Below are positions 1,878 to 51,006 of a stretch of 64,000 nt of DNA, one piece after another (the stretch's first letter is position 1; the number at the start of each line of letters is the position of its first letter). Location: contig JAQTPC010000003.1 in the NCBI GenBank assembly GCA_028713005.1, positions 13,022 through 77,021 of the forward strand, written 5' to 3'. The notes beneath the pieces are model-generated. The model was given only the letters and a program-made list of their open reading frames with translations, was not told the DNA's origin and made no database searches. Origin of the DNA: Minisyncoccota bacterium (GTDB lineage Bacteria; Patescibacteriota; Minisyncoccia; Phycocordibacterales; PALSA-1337). Both the position numbers and the translations under genes were made by a program.

Positions 1878-3821
1878 TTACTGAACGACAGTTTCGTCTC
1901 CCCCCTTATATGCTGGATCTGTACTAAAGCTTGAAGTCAGATAACCTTGCTCACTTGTTAGAGAAGACTGGGTATAATCATCGGTTGCAGTCAGAGTAGA
2001 CGGATTGACGAGAGTTGGTGCAGTAGAAACTTGAGTAATACTTGGTGTAAAGGCTATCTGGAATGCCACTTCACGACGCTTCGATGAATTTGCAGAGTAT
2101 GCACTGATCTGCCCTACATTCCACGTTATAGAACCAGTATTTTGATCATACGTCACACCTTCAGTTGATGGAGATACATTTCCAAGCCATGTCACGTATG
2201 GTGGCAAAGTTGCAGTGACTTGTGCACCACTGACCGAACTGGTCGTATTGCCGATAGACCACAAGACTGTGTAGGTTGTTTTTTGTTCTGCCTTTGGTGG
2301 TATTGGTCCCGTATTGGTAAATGCTCCAGTTGAGCGAACTACCCTGCCTGAAAGAGCGATGCTCGAAGCCACTTTTATTGTACGGCTTGCAGCTGAAGTT
2401 ATGCTACCAGAAGCACCTGATTCTTGAGTACGATCAGCTGACACGCTCGCTGACAGAGATACGTTCGGATTGACGACTTGATTACCTGATGAGTTCGATG
2501 TGTTTGTTGGTGTTATTGAGAATGAGATAGAACCACTTTCTCCTGCAGGGATAGATGCGAGCTCAGGATTTGTCTGTTGATTCCAGATGATCTGATTGCG
2601 CGCAGAATCAAAATAGCCAAGATCAGGCTGGATCTTTGTCTTATCGTACGCAGTACCAGAGAGATTGACTGCAATGACTGCATTTGAAACTGCCACTGAA
2701 AGATTGTTGAACCAGGTGATCGTTACGCGAGCTGGTGAACCAAAGTGCCCAACAAAATCTGTTGAAGATGTGTCATTATCAATGCCGAGCTGCAGACTAA
2801 CGAATGATTTTTCTATCGTGATATTTTGACTGACGAGCCCATATTGAGTGCCAATGACCGCACCATTTGCAGCACTTCGCGCACCGACAGCAAAGTGGAA
2901 TACGCGGGTATCAGAATTTTCACCTTGTAGCTTTCCATGAATGACGACTGAACGCTCAGCACCTGGTGGTATATCACCGATCTTCCATGTGGCATTATCA
3001 GACAGCGGTGGGATGTTCGCGGAGATAAAGCTATAACCAAATGGATACTGCCCTTTCAAGACAACACTCTTGAGTACGTCTTGAGAATTTGATTTGAGTT
3101 TTACTGTCATATCGAACTCTTGACCAGAAGCGATGCTGCTAAACGAAGAAGCAGTGAGAGTGATTGGTGACGAATTAATAAGCACTTCGTAACTTGCGAC
3201 TTTGGTGAAAAGAGCCGTGGAACCTTTTACCTTATATGTCAGCGTTGCAGTGATAGATTTTTGAGTATTCTCTTCCCCAAAGATGATTGCCGATACATTC
3301 GTCGAAGTTGAATAACCTGTTGGTATATCGCCGAGATATTGATCGAGCGACGTAAGTGTCTGTGTAGAATCATGTGCATCGGTCGCACCTGCCGGAAATG
3401 ACACATTCATATCTACCAGCTGAAGATCGATATTATTATTGTTGGTAACCTTGATACCAAAAGAAACTGGCTGACCACCCGGTATCGATACGGGACCAGT
3501 GATAGTGACATCGATATTATTTCCTGATATCAGATTTGAACCATTTAAAAAGAGATACAGACCGATACTAACTGCAATGATGCAGAATATGCCGGAGCCG
3601 ATGAGAAATTTAGTGAAAAATGACATTGAATGATCTTCGTATTGTGTATTGAGCTTTGGAGCTTCTTCTAGCGTTTTATCTGGTTCAGCCCATTCTGACT
3701 TTACCTCAGTATTCATATCTGAAAAACGAAGCTTGCGGCGCGTACGTACTTCTGGTGCACCGCGAGAGTACAGTGACTTCTTCAACTCTTCTATGCGATT
3801 TTGATCTTCTGAGGGAGGCAT
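1878..3821 (-). CDS. Membrane-anchored surface protein with repeated beta-sandwich (DUF11/CARDB-like) modules, Thr/Ser/Asn-rich
   Basis: 647 aa; ~65 aa cytoplasmic N-term, single TM (IGSGIFCIIAVSIGLYLFL), long low-complexity extracellular region. Confidence 0.55.
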   Translation of the reverse strand: MPPSEDQNRIEELKKSLYSRGAPEVRTRRKLRFSDMNTEVKSEWAEPDKTLEEAPKLNTQYEDHSMSFFTKFLIGSGIFCIIAVSIGLYLFLNGSNLISGNNIDVTITGPVSIPGGQPVSFGIKVTNNNNIDLQLVDMNVSFPAGATDAHDSTQTLTSLDQYLGDIPTGYSTSTNVSAIIFGEENTQKSITATLTYKVKGSTALFTKVASYEVLINSSPITLTASSFSSIASGQEFDMTVKLKSNSQDVLKSVVLKGQYPFGYSFISANIPPLSDNATWKIGDIPPGAERSVVIHGKLQGENSDTRVFHFAVGARSAANGAVIGTQYGLVSQNITIEKSFVSLQLGIDNDTSSTDFVGHFGSPARVTITWFNNLSVAVSNAVIAVNLSGTAYDKTKIQPDLGYFDSARNQIIWNQQTNPELASIPAGESGSISFSITPTNTSNSSGNQVVNPNVSLSASVSADRTQESGASGSITSAASRTIKVASSIALSGRVVRSTGAFTNTGPIPPKAEQKTTYTVLWSIGNTTSSVSGAQVTATLPPYVTWLGNVSPSTEGVTYDQNTGSITWNVGQISAYSANSSKRREVAFQIAFTPSITQVSTAPTLVNPSTLTATDDYTQSSLTSEQGYLTSSFSTDPAYKGGDETVVQ

Positions 3822-3850: not shown

Positions 3851-4492
3851 TTACAGATGCGATTCACGGAGTGCCCTGTTGATATGCTGGTTCATGAGAG
3901 TTCGCTGTTGACCCAAAAGAGTCAGACGATCGAGGCTTATAGCATCGGATTCAATATCTTCCTTGAGTGCAGAAATACTTGCCACATAACCCAGACGGTG
4001 AAGGATACGCGTAACTATTAAGGATTCGAGGGTTTTGAATGCTTCACTTCCGAGGGTAGGCCATGAATTAATAAAATCAAATAACGAATCGAGTGCAATG
4101 AATAATTCTGGATGAGGTTCTTCTCCTTGTAGTAAACGATTAAGAAGCAATGCTATGCGCGCAATAAGTTCTTGATTTTGGTCTGCCAATTTCACCTCTT
4201 GTAGCTTGTCCCCTGTCTGCGCAAGCAGGCTTGTATCTTGCACCTTGAGTTCCTGCGCATTAGTTAGTCGCCAAAACTCTTTACCGCTGACAAATGAAAA
4301 AACGCCGAGAGAATAATCTTGAATAAAGGGGCGTAATTTTGATTTTTCGAAACGGATGCCTTGTGCCGTAGCACGGATGAGTCCGAGGTCTTTGGTAAAT
4401 ATAGATAGCAGCTTCCCTGCTTCACCAGATGGCCGTGAGCTTACGATAAATCCGGGAGTTGTGTGAATGGCGTACATAGGTAAATCAACCAA
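3851..4492 (-). CDS. recO: DNA repair protein RecO-like
   Basis: 213 aa; N-terminal OB-fold pattern (IVSSRPSGEAGKLLSIFTKDLGLIRATAQGIR) typical of RecO; no zinc finger. Confidence 0.65.
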   Translation of the reverse strand: MVDLPMYAIHTTPGFIVSSRPSGEAGKLLSIFTKDLGLIRATAQGIRFEKSKLRPFIQDYSLGVFSFVSGKEFWRLTNAQELKVQDTSLLAQTGDKLQEVKLADQNQELIARIALLLNRLLQGEEPHPELFIALDSLFDFINSWPTLGSEAFKTLESLIVTRILHRLGYVASISALKEDIESDAISLDRLTLLGQQRTLMNQHINRALRESHL

Positions 4493-47648: not shown

Positions 47649-49472
47649 CTACGCCACTACCCCATCCTTTCTACCCGCCTTTGATCTATCAGTCGGAGTC
47701 AAAAACTTCTTGCGGAGGCGCACATTGATAGGAGTAATTTCGAGATATTCATCACCACGCATAAGTTCCAAACCTCGTTCAATACTAAGCTCAAACGGAG
47801 GTACGAGCATGAGGGCCTCATCTTTACCGGATGAACGCATGTTCGACATAGCCTTACCCTTACATGGGTTCACGTCCATATCATCACCCTTTGAAGTATC
47901 GCCCACAACCATGCCTTCGTACACCTCAACAGCAGCGCCGATGAAGAGACGTCCACGATCCTGGAGATTCCAGAGAGAGAAGCCGAGAGACTTGCCTGAG
48001 ACCATAGAAGTCATTGAACCTGTTTCGCGCTTTTCGATCTCACCAGCATATGGTTTGAAATCGAGGAAACGACTTGCGAGGATACCCTCACCTTTTGTAT
48101 CGATAACAAACACGTTGCGATACCCGAGGAGACCACGTGTAGGAATCTCAAAGAGGATACGTGACTGACCTTCCTTTGTCTTCATGTCTGTCATGACGGC
48201 CTTGCGCTTGCCGAGCTTGTCGATGATAGCACCAGTGAACTCTTCAGGAATATCGATTGTGAGTTCTTCAAAAGGCTCTGACTTGATCATCTTGCCAGAC
48301 TCATCAGCGATATCTTTGACGATAACCTGTGGCTGAGAAACTTGCATTTCATATCCCTCGCGACGCATATTTTCGAGAAGCACGGCGATGTGGAGTTCAC
48401 CGCGACCGAACACTTTGAAATATTCATTTGCTGAAAAATCCACTTTGAGACCAACGTTGATCTCAAGCTCTTTTTCGAGACGCTCACGGATCTGACGACC
48501 TGTGACGAACTTACCTTCCCTACCTGCGAATGGTGAGTTGTTAACGAGGAAGTTGAGACTGATAGTAGGCTCATCGATCTTGATAGTTGGGAGAGCTTCT
48601 GTCGCTTCATTATCTACGAGAGTTTCCCCAATATAGATATCAGGCAAACCTGCAACAGTGACAATGTCACCTGCAAAAGCTTCTTTGACTTCAACGCGCT
48701 TTTTTCCTTCAAAAGTGAAAAGCTTTGTAATCTTTCCGGTAAATGTCTTTCCGTTGATATCTTTGACCCAGAGACTCTGTCCATCTTTGATAGAACCATC
48801 ATAAACACGACAAACACCGAGACGACCGAGGAAGTTGTCGTAACCGAGGTTAAATACCTGAGCCTTGAGTGGTAAGTTTGCCTGCTCAGCAGTATTTGCA
48901 GGAGCAACATGTGAAAGGATACAGTCGAGGAGCGGAGTGAGGTCTTTTGACTCATCAGCGAGACTCATCTTTGCAATACCCTGACGGCCGATAGCATAGA
49001 CAGTTGGAAAATCGATCTGAGCATCATGCGCACCGAGTTCGATGAAGAGTTCGAGGACTTGTTCATGGACGAGGTTTGGGTTTGCCGCTGGCTTGTCGAT
49101 CTTATTAATGATGACAATAGGTTTGAGACCGAGCTCGAGCGACTTCTTCAAAACAAAACGAGTCTGTGGCATAGGACCTTCCTGTGCATCAACAACAAGT
49201 AGAACTGTGTCGATAGAACGAAGAACGCGTTCAACCTCAGAACCGAAGTCGGCGTGACCAGGAGTGTCAACGATGTTGATCTTTGTGCCCTTGTAGATGA
49301 CTGAGGTATTCTTTGCGTAAATAGTGATACCGCGCTCTTGTTCGAGGGCGTTTGAGTCCATACTTCCCTCATCACCGTGACCACACTGAGTCATGATGGC
49401 ATCAGTAAGAGTAGTCTTACCGTGGTCCACGTGAGCGATGATAGCTATGTTACGTATTTCTTGCTTGTCCAT
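47649..49472 (-). CDS. typA: Translational GTPase TypA/BipA (start trimmed to MDKQEIRNIAIIAHVDHGKTT)
   Basis: 607 aa; GTP-binding AHVDHGKTT, DTPGH, NKID motifs; EF-G-like domains. Confidence 0.9.
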   Translation of the reverse strand: MDKQEIRNIAIIAHVDHGKTTLTDAIMTQCGHGDEGSMDSNALEQERGITIYAKNTSVIYKGTKINIVDTPGHADFGSEVERVLRSIDTVLLVVDAQEGPMPQTRFVLKKSLELGLKPIVIINKIDKPAANPNLVHEQVLELFIELGAHDAQIDFPTVYAIGRQGIAKMSLADESKDLTPLLDCILSHVAPANTAEQANLPLKAQVFNLGYDNFLGRLGVCRVYDGSIKDGQSLWVKDINGKTFTGKITKLFTFEGKKRVEVKEAFAGDIVTVAGLPDIYIGETLVDNEATEALPTIKIDEPTISLNFLVNNSPFAGREGKFVTGRQIRERLEKELEINVGLKVDFSANEYFKVFGRGELHIAVLLENMRREGYEMQVSQPQVIVKDIADESGKMIKSEPFEELTIDIPEEFTGAIIDKLGKRKAVMTDMKTKEGQSRILFEIPTRGLLGYRNVFVIDTKGEGILASRFLDFKPYAGEIEKRETGSMTSMVSGKSLGFSLWNLQDRGRLFIGAAVEVYEGMVVGDTSKGDDMDVNPCKGKAMSNMRSSGKDEALMLVPPFELSIERGLELMRGDEYLEITPINVRLRKKFLTPTDRSKAGRKDGVVA

Positions 49473-49536
49473 GTAATAAAATGAGGTTAATAAGGTTTTT
49501 GTAGTTGCACCGAAGTTGAGGGATAATTTAAACAAA

Positions 49537-49560
49537 AAAAATGACCGAAGTCAAGCAGTG
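49537..49560 (-). terminator. Short intrinsic terminator (tgac-UUCG-gtca + U8) between structured RNA and bipA
   Basis: 4-6 bp stem with UUCG tetraloop followed by TTTTTTTT on minus strand. Confidence 0.45.
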
Positions 49561-49745
49561 TCTTTATGACAACAAGAAAACCGCCAAGGAGACGGGATCT
49601 TGCAGTCGGAGTCACATGGACCCAACGTACCCCTTCTGCATCGAACGTTAGCCGTTCGAGCATTATCGCGGCCTAGACCTTTCGGTTGGCCAGTAACCCT
49701 GGGTATCTAATCCAGGATCCACCTTGGCGGCACATGTCACGAGTG
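49561..49745 (-). ncRNA. Structured RNA upstream of bipA (leader or independent sRNA) containing a 16S rRNA h24 790-loop mimic hairpin
   Basis: Long-range stem ccgccaagg/ccttggcgg plus ggatc/gatcc; internal GAAA tetraloop hairpin; cgaacg-gctaa-cgttcg hairpin; CCUGG-AUUAGAUAC-CCAGG hairpin identical in loop to the 16S 790 loop. Confidence 0.35.
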
Positions 49746-49805
49746 CATACAGTAATCTAGTTACACGAATGCTTTACGTAACTTCAAAATAAACAATACC
49801 ACCCC

Positions 49806-50051
49806 TTAGAAGAAAATAACATACGTCGACCACAGGATAGCGAGCATGAGAATAAATGGTATGAAGATATTCCTCAATGACTGCTTTGGTGATACTGATG
49901 CATGATCTTTGAACATGTAATAGATGAGAAATACTGTGACAACAGCGACGAAAATACCCCAGTTCCGATGTGGATACCATGCATATTTCACATCGATGAT
50001 ACCGAGCGCTGATATAATGAATGGAAGAAGCCTCCCAAATCGAGGAATCAT
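49806..50051 (-). CDS. Small hypothetical membrane protein
   Basis: 81 aa; 2-3 TM. Confidence 0.4.
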   Translation of the reverse strand: MIPRFGRLLPFIISALGIIDVKYAWYPHRNWGIFVAVVTVFLIYYMFKDHASVSPKQSLRNIFIPFILMLAILWSTYVIFF

Positions 50052-50088
50052 ATGCTTCTATTGTAACAAATCTACAGAAAAGGAGATA

Positions 50089-51006
50089 TTAAAATTGATC
50101 GGCAATACCCAATTCCTTACATGCATTCTTGAAGTCTTTTGGTAGAGGTGCCTCAACCTTCATCTTCTCCCCTTTTACGGTTGTAAACTCAATGGAACGA
50201 GCATGGAGTGCAGTACGTTCAAATCCAAGCATCATGGGGCGATTTGGTGCGTAGAGAGTGTCTCCTACGACTGGATGCTGTATCGCTGAAAAGTGCACAC
50301 GGATCTGGTGAGTACGTCCTGTACGAGGTTCTGCTTCCATGAGAGTGAATCGTTGCTTGCTCTCTGTGGCATCCATGTTTCTTCCTGATGATGCCGTGAG
50401 CTTCATAGGAACAACGACGGTGGCGAGCTTTGTCCAATACGTCTCAGCTTCGCGCTCTACTCCGCGACTGCCACGACTCGCTGAATATCGACGAAAATCT
50501 GAACCACTACGTCCAATCGGACGAGTGATAGTACCGAACTCTTCTTTGAGATCACCCCAGACGAATGCAACGTACTTCTTTTTCATTGTTCTATCTTGAA
50601 ACTGTTGTTTGAGATGCGCATGACCTTTTGCTGTCTTTGCAATGAGAAGCACGCCTGACGTTTCGCGGTCGAGACGATGGACAATACCGGGACGAATGAT
50701 CTCAGTTCCATCTGGAGTACGAGAAGGCTCCCCTACGTTCTTTGTTCGGGGAAACTCCTTTACTACCCAGTCAGTAATGAATGGCCCTGGTGCACGGCCG
50801 TCAGGATGTACCATAAGACCAGCAGGCTTGTCGATCGCCACAATGTCAACATCCTCATAGAGGATAGTGATCTTTGGGATCTTCATTGCTTTGCGGGGAG
50901 CGCTCTGTTGCGTCTTTTTTGATGACTTATTGCTCATATGATGAATATACGCTATTGTATCGGGTAAGGCAAAGTTCTGGTCAAAAATTTCTTTAGGCTT
51001 CGCCAA
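50089..51006 (-). CDS. RluA-family pseudouridine synthase (true start may be internal, e.g. MSNKSS at 50937)
   Basis: RluA catalytic motif HRLDRETSGVLLIAKT; no S4 domain. Confidence 0.8.
   Translation of the reverse strand: MAKPKEIFDQNFALPDTIAYIHHMSNKSSKKTQQSAPRKAMKIPKITILYEDVDIVAIDKPAGLMVHPDGRAPGPFITDWVVKEFPRTKNVGEPSRTPDGTEIIRPGIVHRLDRETSGVLLIAKTAKGHAHLKQQFQDRTMKKKYVAFVWGDLKEEFGTITRPIGRSGSDFRRYSASRGSRGVEREAETYWTKLATVVVPMKLTASSGRNMDATESKQRFTLMEAEPRTGRTHQIRVHFSAIQHPVVGDTLYAPNRPMMLGFERTALHARSIEFTTVKGEKMKVEAPLPKDFKNACKELGIADQF

Follow-up and report, generated by a model that had tools for sequence, protein, structure and literature searches.

In a 64,000-nucleotide (nt) stretch of contig JAQTPC010000003.1 (positions 13,022 to 77,021, Minisyncoccota bacterium assembly GCA_028713005.1), hereafter the window, the minus strand between a gene for an 81-amino-acid (81-aa) membrane protein and the promoter of bipA (typA) holds an apparently self-contained, lineage-restricted small RNA (sRNA) gene of ~210 nt. 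It represents a new family of sRNA: previously undescribed, supported by covariation, narrow in distribution and absent from Rfam. One of its hairpins holds an exact and strictly conserved copy of the '790 loop', a universally conserved loop of 16S ribosomal RNA (rRNA), and for that reason the element may be a decoy for something that binds the ribosome. An earlier, sequence-only reading of this DNA had offered a riboswitch, an attenuator leader or an independent sRNA as the nature of the region, and a 790-loop decoy within the bipA leader as its function. The independent sRNA is the only one of the three that fits; none of the five homologues departs from the loop sequence although the stem beneath it does change, as a functional mimic predicts, but the assignment to a bipA leader and to bipA regulation falls away. 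The rRNA-mimic idea survives in a modified form, in that the RNA would be a free-standing decoy that is not BipA-specific.

The 13-mer GGAUUAGAUACCC (GGATTAGATACCC) at 49713-49701 (minus strand) is identical to positions 785-797 of Escherichia coli (E. coli) 16S rRNA (rrsH), bearing out the earlier identification of the hairpin CCUGG-AUUAGAUAC-CCAGG as a 790-loop copy. It is present once in the window, where 0.02 occurrences with at most one mismatch are expected; 2 of 100 shuffles yield one. The 9-nt loop of this hairpin (P2, below) with its closing G-C pair (49712-49702), G-AUUAGAUAC-C, equals 16S positions 786-796, and 11 of 11 nucleotides are invariant in 5 of 5 homologues while the P2 stem covaries. 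Compared with 16S helix 24 (790 loop, E. coli nt 783-799), the loop AUUAGAUAC and the pair G786-C796 are the same in all five homologues, G785-C797 is also present in the window and in one other (L086), and the hairpin geometry, a 9-nt loop closed by G-C, is shared; helix 24 has a 4-base-pair (bp) upper stem and an internal loop, whereas the element has a continuous, freely covarying 8-bp helix, lies outside any rRNA and has no other rRNA similarity. As judged from these alignments, the rRNA motif that the element copies is a conserved one, stands in an equivalent structural setting and is under selection, and an 11-nt identity with the same hairpin geometry, invariant amid stem drift, appears hard to ascribe to chance.

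The structured RNA itself occupies 49733-49575 (minus strand), ~155 nt, or ~210 nt when a 5' hairpin (P0) is counted; the span of 49537-49745 given by the sequence-only reading runs too far on the 3' side and, on the 5' side, leaves out some 50 nt (49801-49736) that hold a conserved hairpin and promoter-like sequence. Its parts are as follows.

49571..49801, minus strand: whole sRNA cassette (promoter-like motif, P0, five-helix core, U-tract), between the stop of the 81-aa gene and the bipA terminator/promoter block.
49793..49801, minus strand: candidate extended -10 promoter TGGTATTGT (TGn + TAnnGT), 6-7 nt 5' of strong RNA conservation.
49736..49782, minus strand: P0, imperfect 5' hairpin of ~47 nt (GUUACG...CGUGAC outer stem, GUAA/UUAC tip), from RNAalifold on four sequences.
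49720..49731, minus strand: 5' strand of P1 (GCCGCCAAGGUG), part of the 12-bp closing stem, supported by covariation.
49695..49719, minus strand: P2, 8-bp hairpin with the 790-like loop; loop invariant, stem covarying.
49670..49691, minus strand: P3, hairpin capped by a GAAA tetraloop and interrupted by a small internal loop (GGCC-AA-CC GAAA GG-UCUA-GGCC), supported by covariation.
49641..49659, minus strand: P4, variable arm, in the window UCGAACG-GCUAA-CGUUCGA; a different hairpin in each homologue.
49596..49632, minus strand: P5, bipartite helix (GGGU/GAUC + GUUGGG/UCCGAC; helices 6 and 7) with a conserved asymmetric internal loop.
49571..49591, minus strand: 3' strand of P1 (CUCCUUGGCGGU) followed by the U-rich tract UUUUCUUGUUG, read as the element's own terminator; a terminator-like site in the scan.

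Structure was analysed on five sequences: the window, L003, L081 (identical to L082), L086 and L090. RNAalifold resolves the five cores into 43 pairs, grouped as P1 (12 bp), P2 (8 bp, contiguous with P1), P3, P4 and P5, with 94.3% of cells forming standard pairs and both partners altered at 11 of the pairs; none of 500 shuffles reaches the observed pairing and two-sided changes, and when the 3' partners are displaced pairing is 29-52%. Covariation in the closing stem and across the fold thus marks a genuine structured RNA, as had been supposed, and the 209-nt span of the earlier reading also folds more stably than its shuffles (z = -2.84). Folded singly, each of the five sequences gives P1, P2 and P3 as well as some hairpin in place of P4 and some helix in place of P5, the last agreeing with the consensus pairing in L081 and L090 only.

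P1 pairs 49731-49720 with 49591-49580, is paired in 98% of cells and has two pairs changed on both sides (A-U/G-C, columns 6:162 and 9:159); the 9-bp closing stem described earlier (ccgccaagg/ccttggcgg) is real and extends to 12 bp, with two compensatory pairs. Its proposed extension by ggatc/gatcc is confined to the window, forming 0 to 2 of 5 pairs in the four homologues, and the bases concerned instead lengthen the 790-like hairpin to 8 bp. That hairpin, P2, on which P1 stacks directly, is the best-supported helix of all (5 of 8 stem pairs changed on both sides), and three nucleotides from it stands P3 with its GNRA loop. P3 keeps the segment A-CGAAAGGU unchanged throughout and has a covarying outer stem, so that the GAAA-tetraloop hairpin noticed previously (49691-49670) proves conserved and covarying. 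The cgaacg/cgttcg hairpin exists in the window, as P4, but is not conserved, P4 being a variable arm whose alifold consensus amounts to 4 pairs, 2 of them with compensatory changes. Helices 6 and 7 of P5 are paired in 91-95% of cells, and the four homologues retain both GGUUAUG and ACUAUCAAACC; the GGGU/GAUC part is weak in the window. A pseudoknot between the loop and P5 (GAUA with UAUC) was dropped, the partner site in the window being UGCA.

For P0, RNAalifold on four sequences gives 17 pairs, one of them compensatory (A-U to G-C in L081) and several with G-C/G-U changes; the ~47-nt hairpin of these four copies is cut down to a mini-hairpin stub in L090. The 3' arm of P0 contains a 3-codon mini-ORF (open reading frame), AUG CAC UCG UGA (49736-49747, minus strand), which is kept in four elements and has in L086 a synonymous UCG>UCC change that also disrupts a P0 pair; it is probably incidental. 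At the other end, all homologues have GGYGG followed by a U tract (U4-U6 across the five sequences). Here a local 5-bp hairpin, CCGUC/GGCGG (49595-49581, minus strand), rivals P1 for the same 3' strand; in its general form CCRYC/GGYGG, R is G in the window and A elsewhere, and the hairpin changes in step with the C/U of GGYGG and both of its partners. The window, L003, L081, L086 and L090 may thus each have a choice of two structures at the 3' end, with no obvious on/off logic since both place a helix before the U-tract.

The transcribed strand is that of bipA, as follows from the G-U pairs (24 of 209 cells) and from the scores of the covariance model on L090, 157 bits forward and 13.5 bits in reverse. 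The Rfam/Infernal scan recommended by the sequence-only reading gave no family match for the element, whether to riboswitches, 6S, SRP, RNase P, tmRNA, ribozymes or r-protein leaders: with Rfam 15 at the gathering threshold the whole window yields 7 tRNAs only and no rRNA gene, and at E <= 10 the interval 49400-49900 yields a lone 12.6-bit suhB/mmgR match (gathering score 41) driven by the U-tract. Several known structures were considered by eye and dropped for want of their defining motifs or partner genes, namely signal recognition particle (SRP) domain IV, group II intron domain V, the hammerhead core, the 11-nt tetraloop receptor, retron msr/msd, Y RNA and integron attC. As had been noted, no credible ORF lies between the 81-aa gene (49806-50051) and the bipA ATG at 49472; a 58-aa ORF (49487-49663) was dropped, as it traverses the promoter and its frame is broken by indels among the homologues.

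The element appears to have transcription signals of its own. A TGnTAnnGT motif stands 6-7 nt before the conserved start of the RNA in all five copies, with TGGTAGTGT, TGATATCGT and TGGTAACGT in the four homologues at an offset matching that of TGGTATTGT; in L090, which lacks the full P0 and in which the RNA starts with P1, the motif is 6 nt before P1. We infer that it is the element's own extended -10 promoter. An intrinsic terminator arrangement, the GC-rich 3' strand of P1 or the local hairpin followed by U4-U6, is present in five of five sequences, and the transcript probably ends at this P1 + U-tract terminator. With a promoter and a terminator of its own, the element would consequently lie outside the bipA mRNA.

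Five distinct copies were found (window, L003, L081 = L082, L086, L090), each directly 3' of the 81-aa gene. The four beyond the window lie in related Paceibacteria contigs and answer the earlier call for a check of relatives; their sources were bipA loci (L003), contigs encoding the 81-aa protein (L081) and a metagenome pattern scan (L086, L090). Among 80 bipA loci of related species-representative genomes, a homologous element is found in L003 alone (nhmmer E = 5e-12), and the 13-mer itself occurs in none. Three loci whose BipA is 95-97% identical (L001, L002, L042) miss ~230 nt relative to the window, the stop of the membrane-protein gene standing almost directly before the conserved block CTTGACT-N17-TTTAAATTATCCCTCAAC. 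The element is likewise missing from contigs L083, L084, L091-L099, L103, P0017 and P0018; ~12 of about 18 lineages with the 81-aa gene lack it, and further 81-aa-gene contigs contributed no new copy. As about two thirds of the close relatives examined are without it, the element is an accessory sRNA cassette and the RNA is probably dispensable.

A covariance model built from the five copies found no further one, whether across 643 kb of related loci or in the rest of the window; its searches took in 80 bipA loci, the window itself and 10 additional loci. The first exact metagenome pattern, which required AGATTAG + ACCGAAAGGT, had no matches and was too strict, the window itself being unmatched; a second exact pattern gave 6 matches in JGI metagenomes, of which L086 and L090 are true homologues in the same context and L087-L089 are chance matches. 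The pattern scan detected no copy in JGI samples that hold element-less relatives, and its 2 matches in IMG/VR were both judged chance, in unrelated sequence. The sixth JGI match, at L085:4989-5092 (minus strand), AUGG-AUUAGAUAC-CCAG and then a UACC-GAAA-GGUA hairpin, has the same two loops at tighter spacing; as a homologue it was set aside as chance (10.7 bits), and the neighbouring ORF, with WD40-like repeats, looks eukaryotic. A gap of 311 nt at the site in P0013 could accommodate a sixth copy. Beside element-bearing loci the identity of the 81-aa protein to that of the window runs from 88% down to 41%, and closer relatives of the protein (81%, 74%, 73%) occur without the element. The distribution fits an ancestral, dispensable gene with repeated loss.

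BipA relatives place the host in Patescibacteria (Paceibacteria / "Taylorbacteria"-like metagenome-assembled genomes). The order of genes on the minus strand, with identities from Pfam, is an RluA/RluD-type pseudouridine synthase, the 81-aa membrane protein, bipA/typA and rplS.

50089-51006, minus strand: gene for the RluA/RluD-type pseudouridine synthase (rluD-like), identified by Pfam.
49806-50051, minus strand: gene for the 81-aa two-helix membrane protein (stop codon 49808-49806), no Pfam family.
49525..49554, minus strand: predicted bipA promoter TTGACT-N18-TAAATT, outside the RNA, from the promoter scan.
ATG at 49472, minus strand: bipA/typA, identified by Pfam.

The promoter scan of 49300-50200 returned a single promoter-like site, TTGACT-18-TAAATT at 49554-49525, 3' of the element. 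Its -35 box is inside a short hairpin (49553-49542) followed by U8 (49541-49534); this is the UUCG hairpin and U8 terminator that had been assigned to the RNA, and it does exist (49553-49534) but is not part of the element, since it overlaps the bipA -35 box and is conserved without the element. The promoter block and the first nucleotides of the bipA 5' untranslated region (UTR) are conserved in 17 loci of the clade, most of them element-less. A block with the -35 box in a hairpin and U6-U8 was seen in the window, L001, L002, L003, L042, L081-L084, L086, L090, L094-L099 and L103. The hairpin stems vary among relatives (GGCG/CGCC, TCGC/GCGA, CGCT/AGCG, TGAC/GTCA), with the promoter and the UTR start ATTATCCCTCAAC invariant. 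As element-less relatives carry a hairpin of different stem at this place, the hairpin and U-run are read as a terminator of upstream transcription fused to the bipA -35 box; the whole has the look of one compact unit that serves as both terminator and promoter. Downstream of the element in L090 come first a 191-aa gene, which has a TTGACA/TATAAT promoter to itself, then the bipA promoter block and bipA.

The spot between the 81-aa gene and the bipA promoter is a hot spot of variable intergenic cargo, and the genomic adjacency of the element to bipA is explained by it. Besides the 191-aa gene that follows the sRNA in L090 (L090:949-1768), the site holds four small genes, one of them a class-I S-adenosylmethionine (SAM) methyltransferase, in L084 (L084:1960-4010), a 92-aa and a 58-aa gene in L091 (L091:3247-3749) and one 70-aa gene in L097-99 (L097:834-1146). 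Separately, a small hairpin GCCUGAAAGGGC (GCCUAUAAAGGC in L094) with AUUUUAUU after it occurs in some bipA 5' UTRs, at a distance of about 20-55 nt from the start codon (L003:~2990-3015, L084:~4090-4115, L097:~1235-1260, L094:~3395-3420); the window does not have it, and in the lineages that do it could attenuate bipA from the leader.

Given this arrangement, the idea of a riboswitch or attenuator that controls bipA in cis from its leader, choosing between termination and read-through, has very little left to recommend it. The element is directly upstream of bipA on the same strand in 4 of 5 cases, BipA is a ribosome-binding GTPase, and two mutually exclusive structures, P1 and the covarying local 5-bp hairpin, compete for GGYGG before the U-tract. 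Yet a predicted promoter and a conserved start of the 5' UTR lie between the element and bipA in the 17 loci mentioned, a second hairpin with U8 comes after the terminator that belongs to the element, L090 has a separately promoted 191-aa gene in between, 79 of 80 related bipA loci are without the element, and no Rfam riboswitch matches. The position of the promoter, the element's own terminator, the L090 context and the 79 loci reduce the link between BipA and the 790 loop to adjacency, and on the sequence evidence we reject the element as a bipA leader or regulator; we know of no documented contact between BipA and the 790 loop. Further still from probable is a pseudogenised or captured fragment of a 16S gene, or a piece of rRNA supplied in trans: the exact 13-nt identity to 16S 785-797 in the window would suit it, but there is no 16S or 23S similarity beyond chance 7-10-mers, the P2 stems differ among homologues where a near-identical helix 24 would be expected in such close relatives, and most relatives lack the element. 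The absence of similarity beyond 786-796 (785-797 in the window) shows that the element is not an rRNA fragment. An RNA component or remnant of a mobile or defence-type cassette (guide-like or antitoxin-like), with its partner protein elsewhere or lost, is improbable, if less so. The differing cargo at the site (L084, L091, L097-99, L090), the presence/absence polymorphism and the layout of a conserved scaffold with a variable arm (P4) all speak for it; against this, the flanks of the element hold no recombinase, reverse transcriptase, nuclease or repeat, it keeps to one genomic position and one orientation throughout, and neither blastn against phage and plasmid collections nor the IMG/VR scan produced a true match. 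Its divergence also roughly tracks that of the 81-aa gene (41% to 88% protein identity), which favours vertical descent with losses.

The best explanation, which we advance tentatively, is an independent sRNA that would act in trans as a molecular decoy, presenting its 790-loop copy to a factor that binds the loop. P1 and P2 would form a rigid rod displaying the 790 loop at its tip beside the GNRA loop of P3, and the RNA would bind and titrate a factor that normally recognises the loop on the 30S platform; the best-documented candidates are IF3 (through its C-terminal domain, IF3C) and the KsgA/RsmA methyltransferase, the alternative being the partner on the 50S side of bridge B2b. In published structures the 790 loop is bound by IF3C, which when bound blocks bridge B2b, and mutation of G791 lowers IF3 affinity 10-fold (PMC3130014); loop 1 of KsgA touches A790/G791, and three features anchor the enzyme, namely helix 24 (h24), the GNRA loop of h27 and the tetraloop of h45 (bioRxiv 10.1101/2021.09.15.460497). 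The fuller proposal, that the RNA is a trans mimic of the 30S platform that titrates IF3 or KsgA or occupies the 50S side of B2b, and so tunes initiation, 30S maturation or subunit joining, we regard as rather doubtful.

A number of points weigh against the decoy. In blastn-short comparison with E. coli rrsH and rrlH, 785-797 is the only rRNA similarity (11-13 nt), the remaining matches being 7-10-mers and one 14-nt, 93%-identical match to 23S, all with E >= 0.5, and the rest of h24, h45 and h27 are not copied in the element. The sequence-only reading had named such an isolated match, coupled with a lack of conservation and covariation, as what would undo it; the 13-mer region is indeed the only rRNA similarity, but conservation and covariation are both present. 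KsgA is reported not to methylate mini-RNA substrates (bioRxiv 10.1101/2021.09.15.460497), IF3 binding to the 30S subunit uses several helices so that an isolated loop may be a weak binder, and the element has no linked gene that encodes a factor binding the 790 loop. Upstream, a -35 box is not apparent, the promoter and RNA ends are predicted from sequence, and read-through from the rluD-like/81-aa operon, giving a 3'-UTR-derived RNA, is possible. Statistical power is modest, too, because the structure relies on five sequences of one narrow clade, related by descent. Finally, the constancy of the loop could just as well reflect a tertiary contact within the RNA or another partner. This last possibility belongs to the chief competing explanation, somewhat unlikely in our estimation, in which an independent sRNA or an RNA from the 3' UTR of the 81-aa gene has a function unrelated to the ribosome, and the identity of the loop, needed for a tertiary contact or for some other protein or RNA, is coincidence or convergence. 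It is favoured by the fact that rRNA similarity ends at the loop and closing pair, by other invariant unpaired stretches (ACCGAAAGGU, ACUAUCAA) that have no rRNA counterpart, by the lack of a -35 box, which makes a 3'-UTR origin possible, and by the absence of antisense targets of the loop above chance in the window, its tRNAs and E. coli rRNA, a result that counts solely against base-pairing targets. It must also accommodate, however, a chance of ~2e-7, by our own estimate, that a 9-nt loop and closing pair equal a given 11-mer, which by the same estimate leaves coincidence unlikely even across tens of famous rRNA loops, a hairpin geometry (9-nt loop, G-C closed) the same as that of h24, and the retention of all nine loop bases in five sequences whose stems have diverged.

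Set against known systems, the element shares with riboswitch and attenuator leaders a multi-helix junction, a P1 3' strand abutting a U-tract and an alternative hairpin on that strand, but it is not between a promoter and an ORF, the gene downstream is inconsistent and Rfam has no match. Decoy or sponge sRNAs are represented by 6S RNA, a mimic of open promoter DNA, and by CsrB/RsmZ, a CsrA sponge; like them, the element is free-standing, ~200 nt long and equipped with a long closing stem, a terminator and a proposed ligand mimic, but it has a single mimic site instead of repeated ones, is probably dispensable, is restricted to one small clade and in the Rfam scans matches these families in neither sequence nor structure. 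To our knowledge the regulatory RNAs of ultra-small Patescibacteria have been little studied, and even without a decoy function the locus offers a new RNA family, a compact terminator/promoter overlap and a cargo hot spot beside bipA. The decoy hypothesis is directly testable, the RNA being short, its in silico fold robust and its candidate partners (IF3, KsgA, 50S) named.

The nearest precedents for the loop itself are the rRNA-mimic operators in mRNAs of ribosomal proteins and rRNA enzymes, such as the S15, S8, L1, L10 and S6:S18 leaders and the autoregulation of ErmC. There, as here, a short conserved rRNA motif is copied into a non-ribosomal RNA in a different helical context. The known copies let an rRNA-binding protein bind, sit in the 5' UTR of its own mRNA and act in cis on translation, whereas the element ends at a terminator of its own, is not within the bipA transcription unit and is linked to no gene encoding a 790-loop binder. 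The rRNA mimics known so far are short operators, each within the mRNA of the protein that it binds; a separate sRNA having as its most conserved feature a perfect copy of a universally conserved P-site and subunit-interface loop, and serving as decoy for a factor that reads the 30S platform, would, if the proposal is true, be a new mode of regulating the translation machinery, acting in trans on that machinery rather than in cis on one mRNA.

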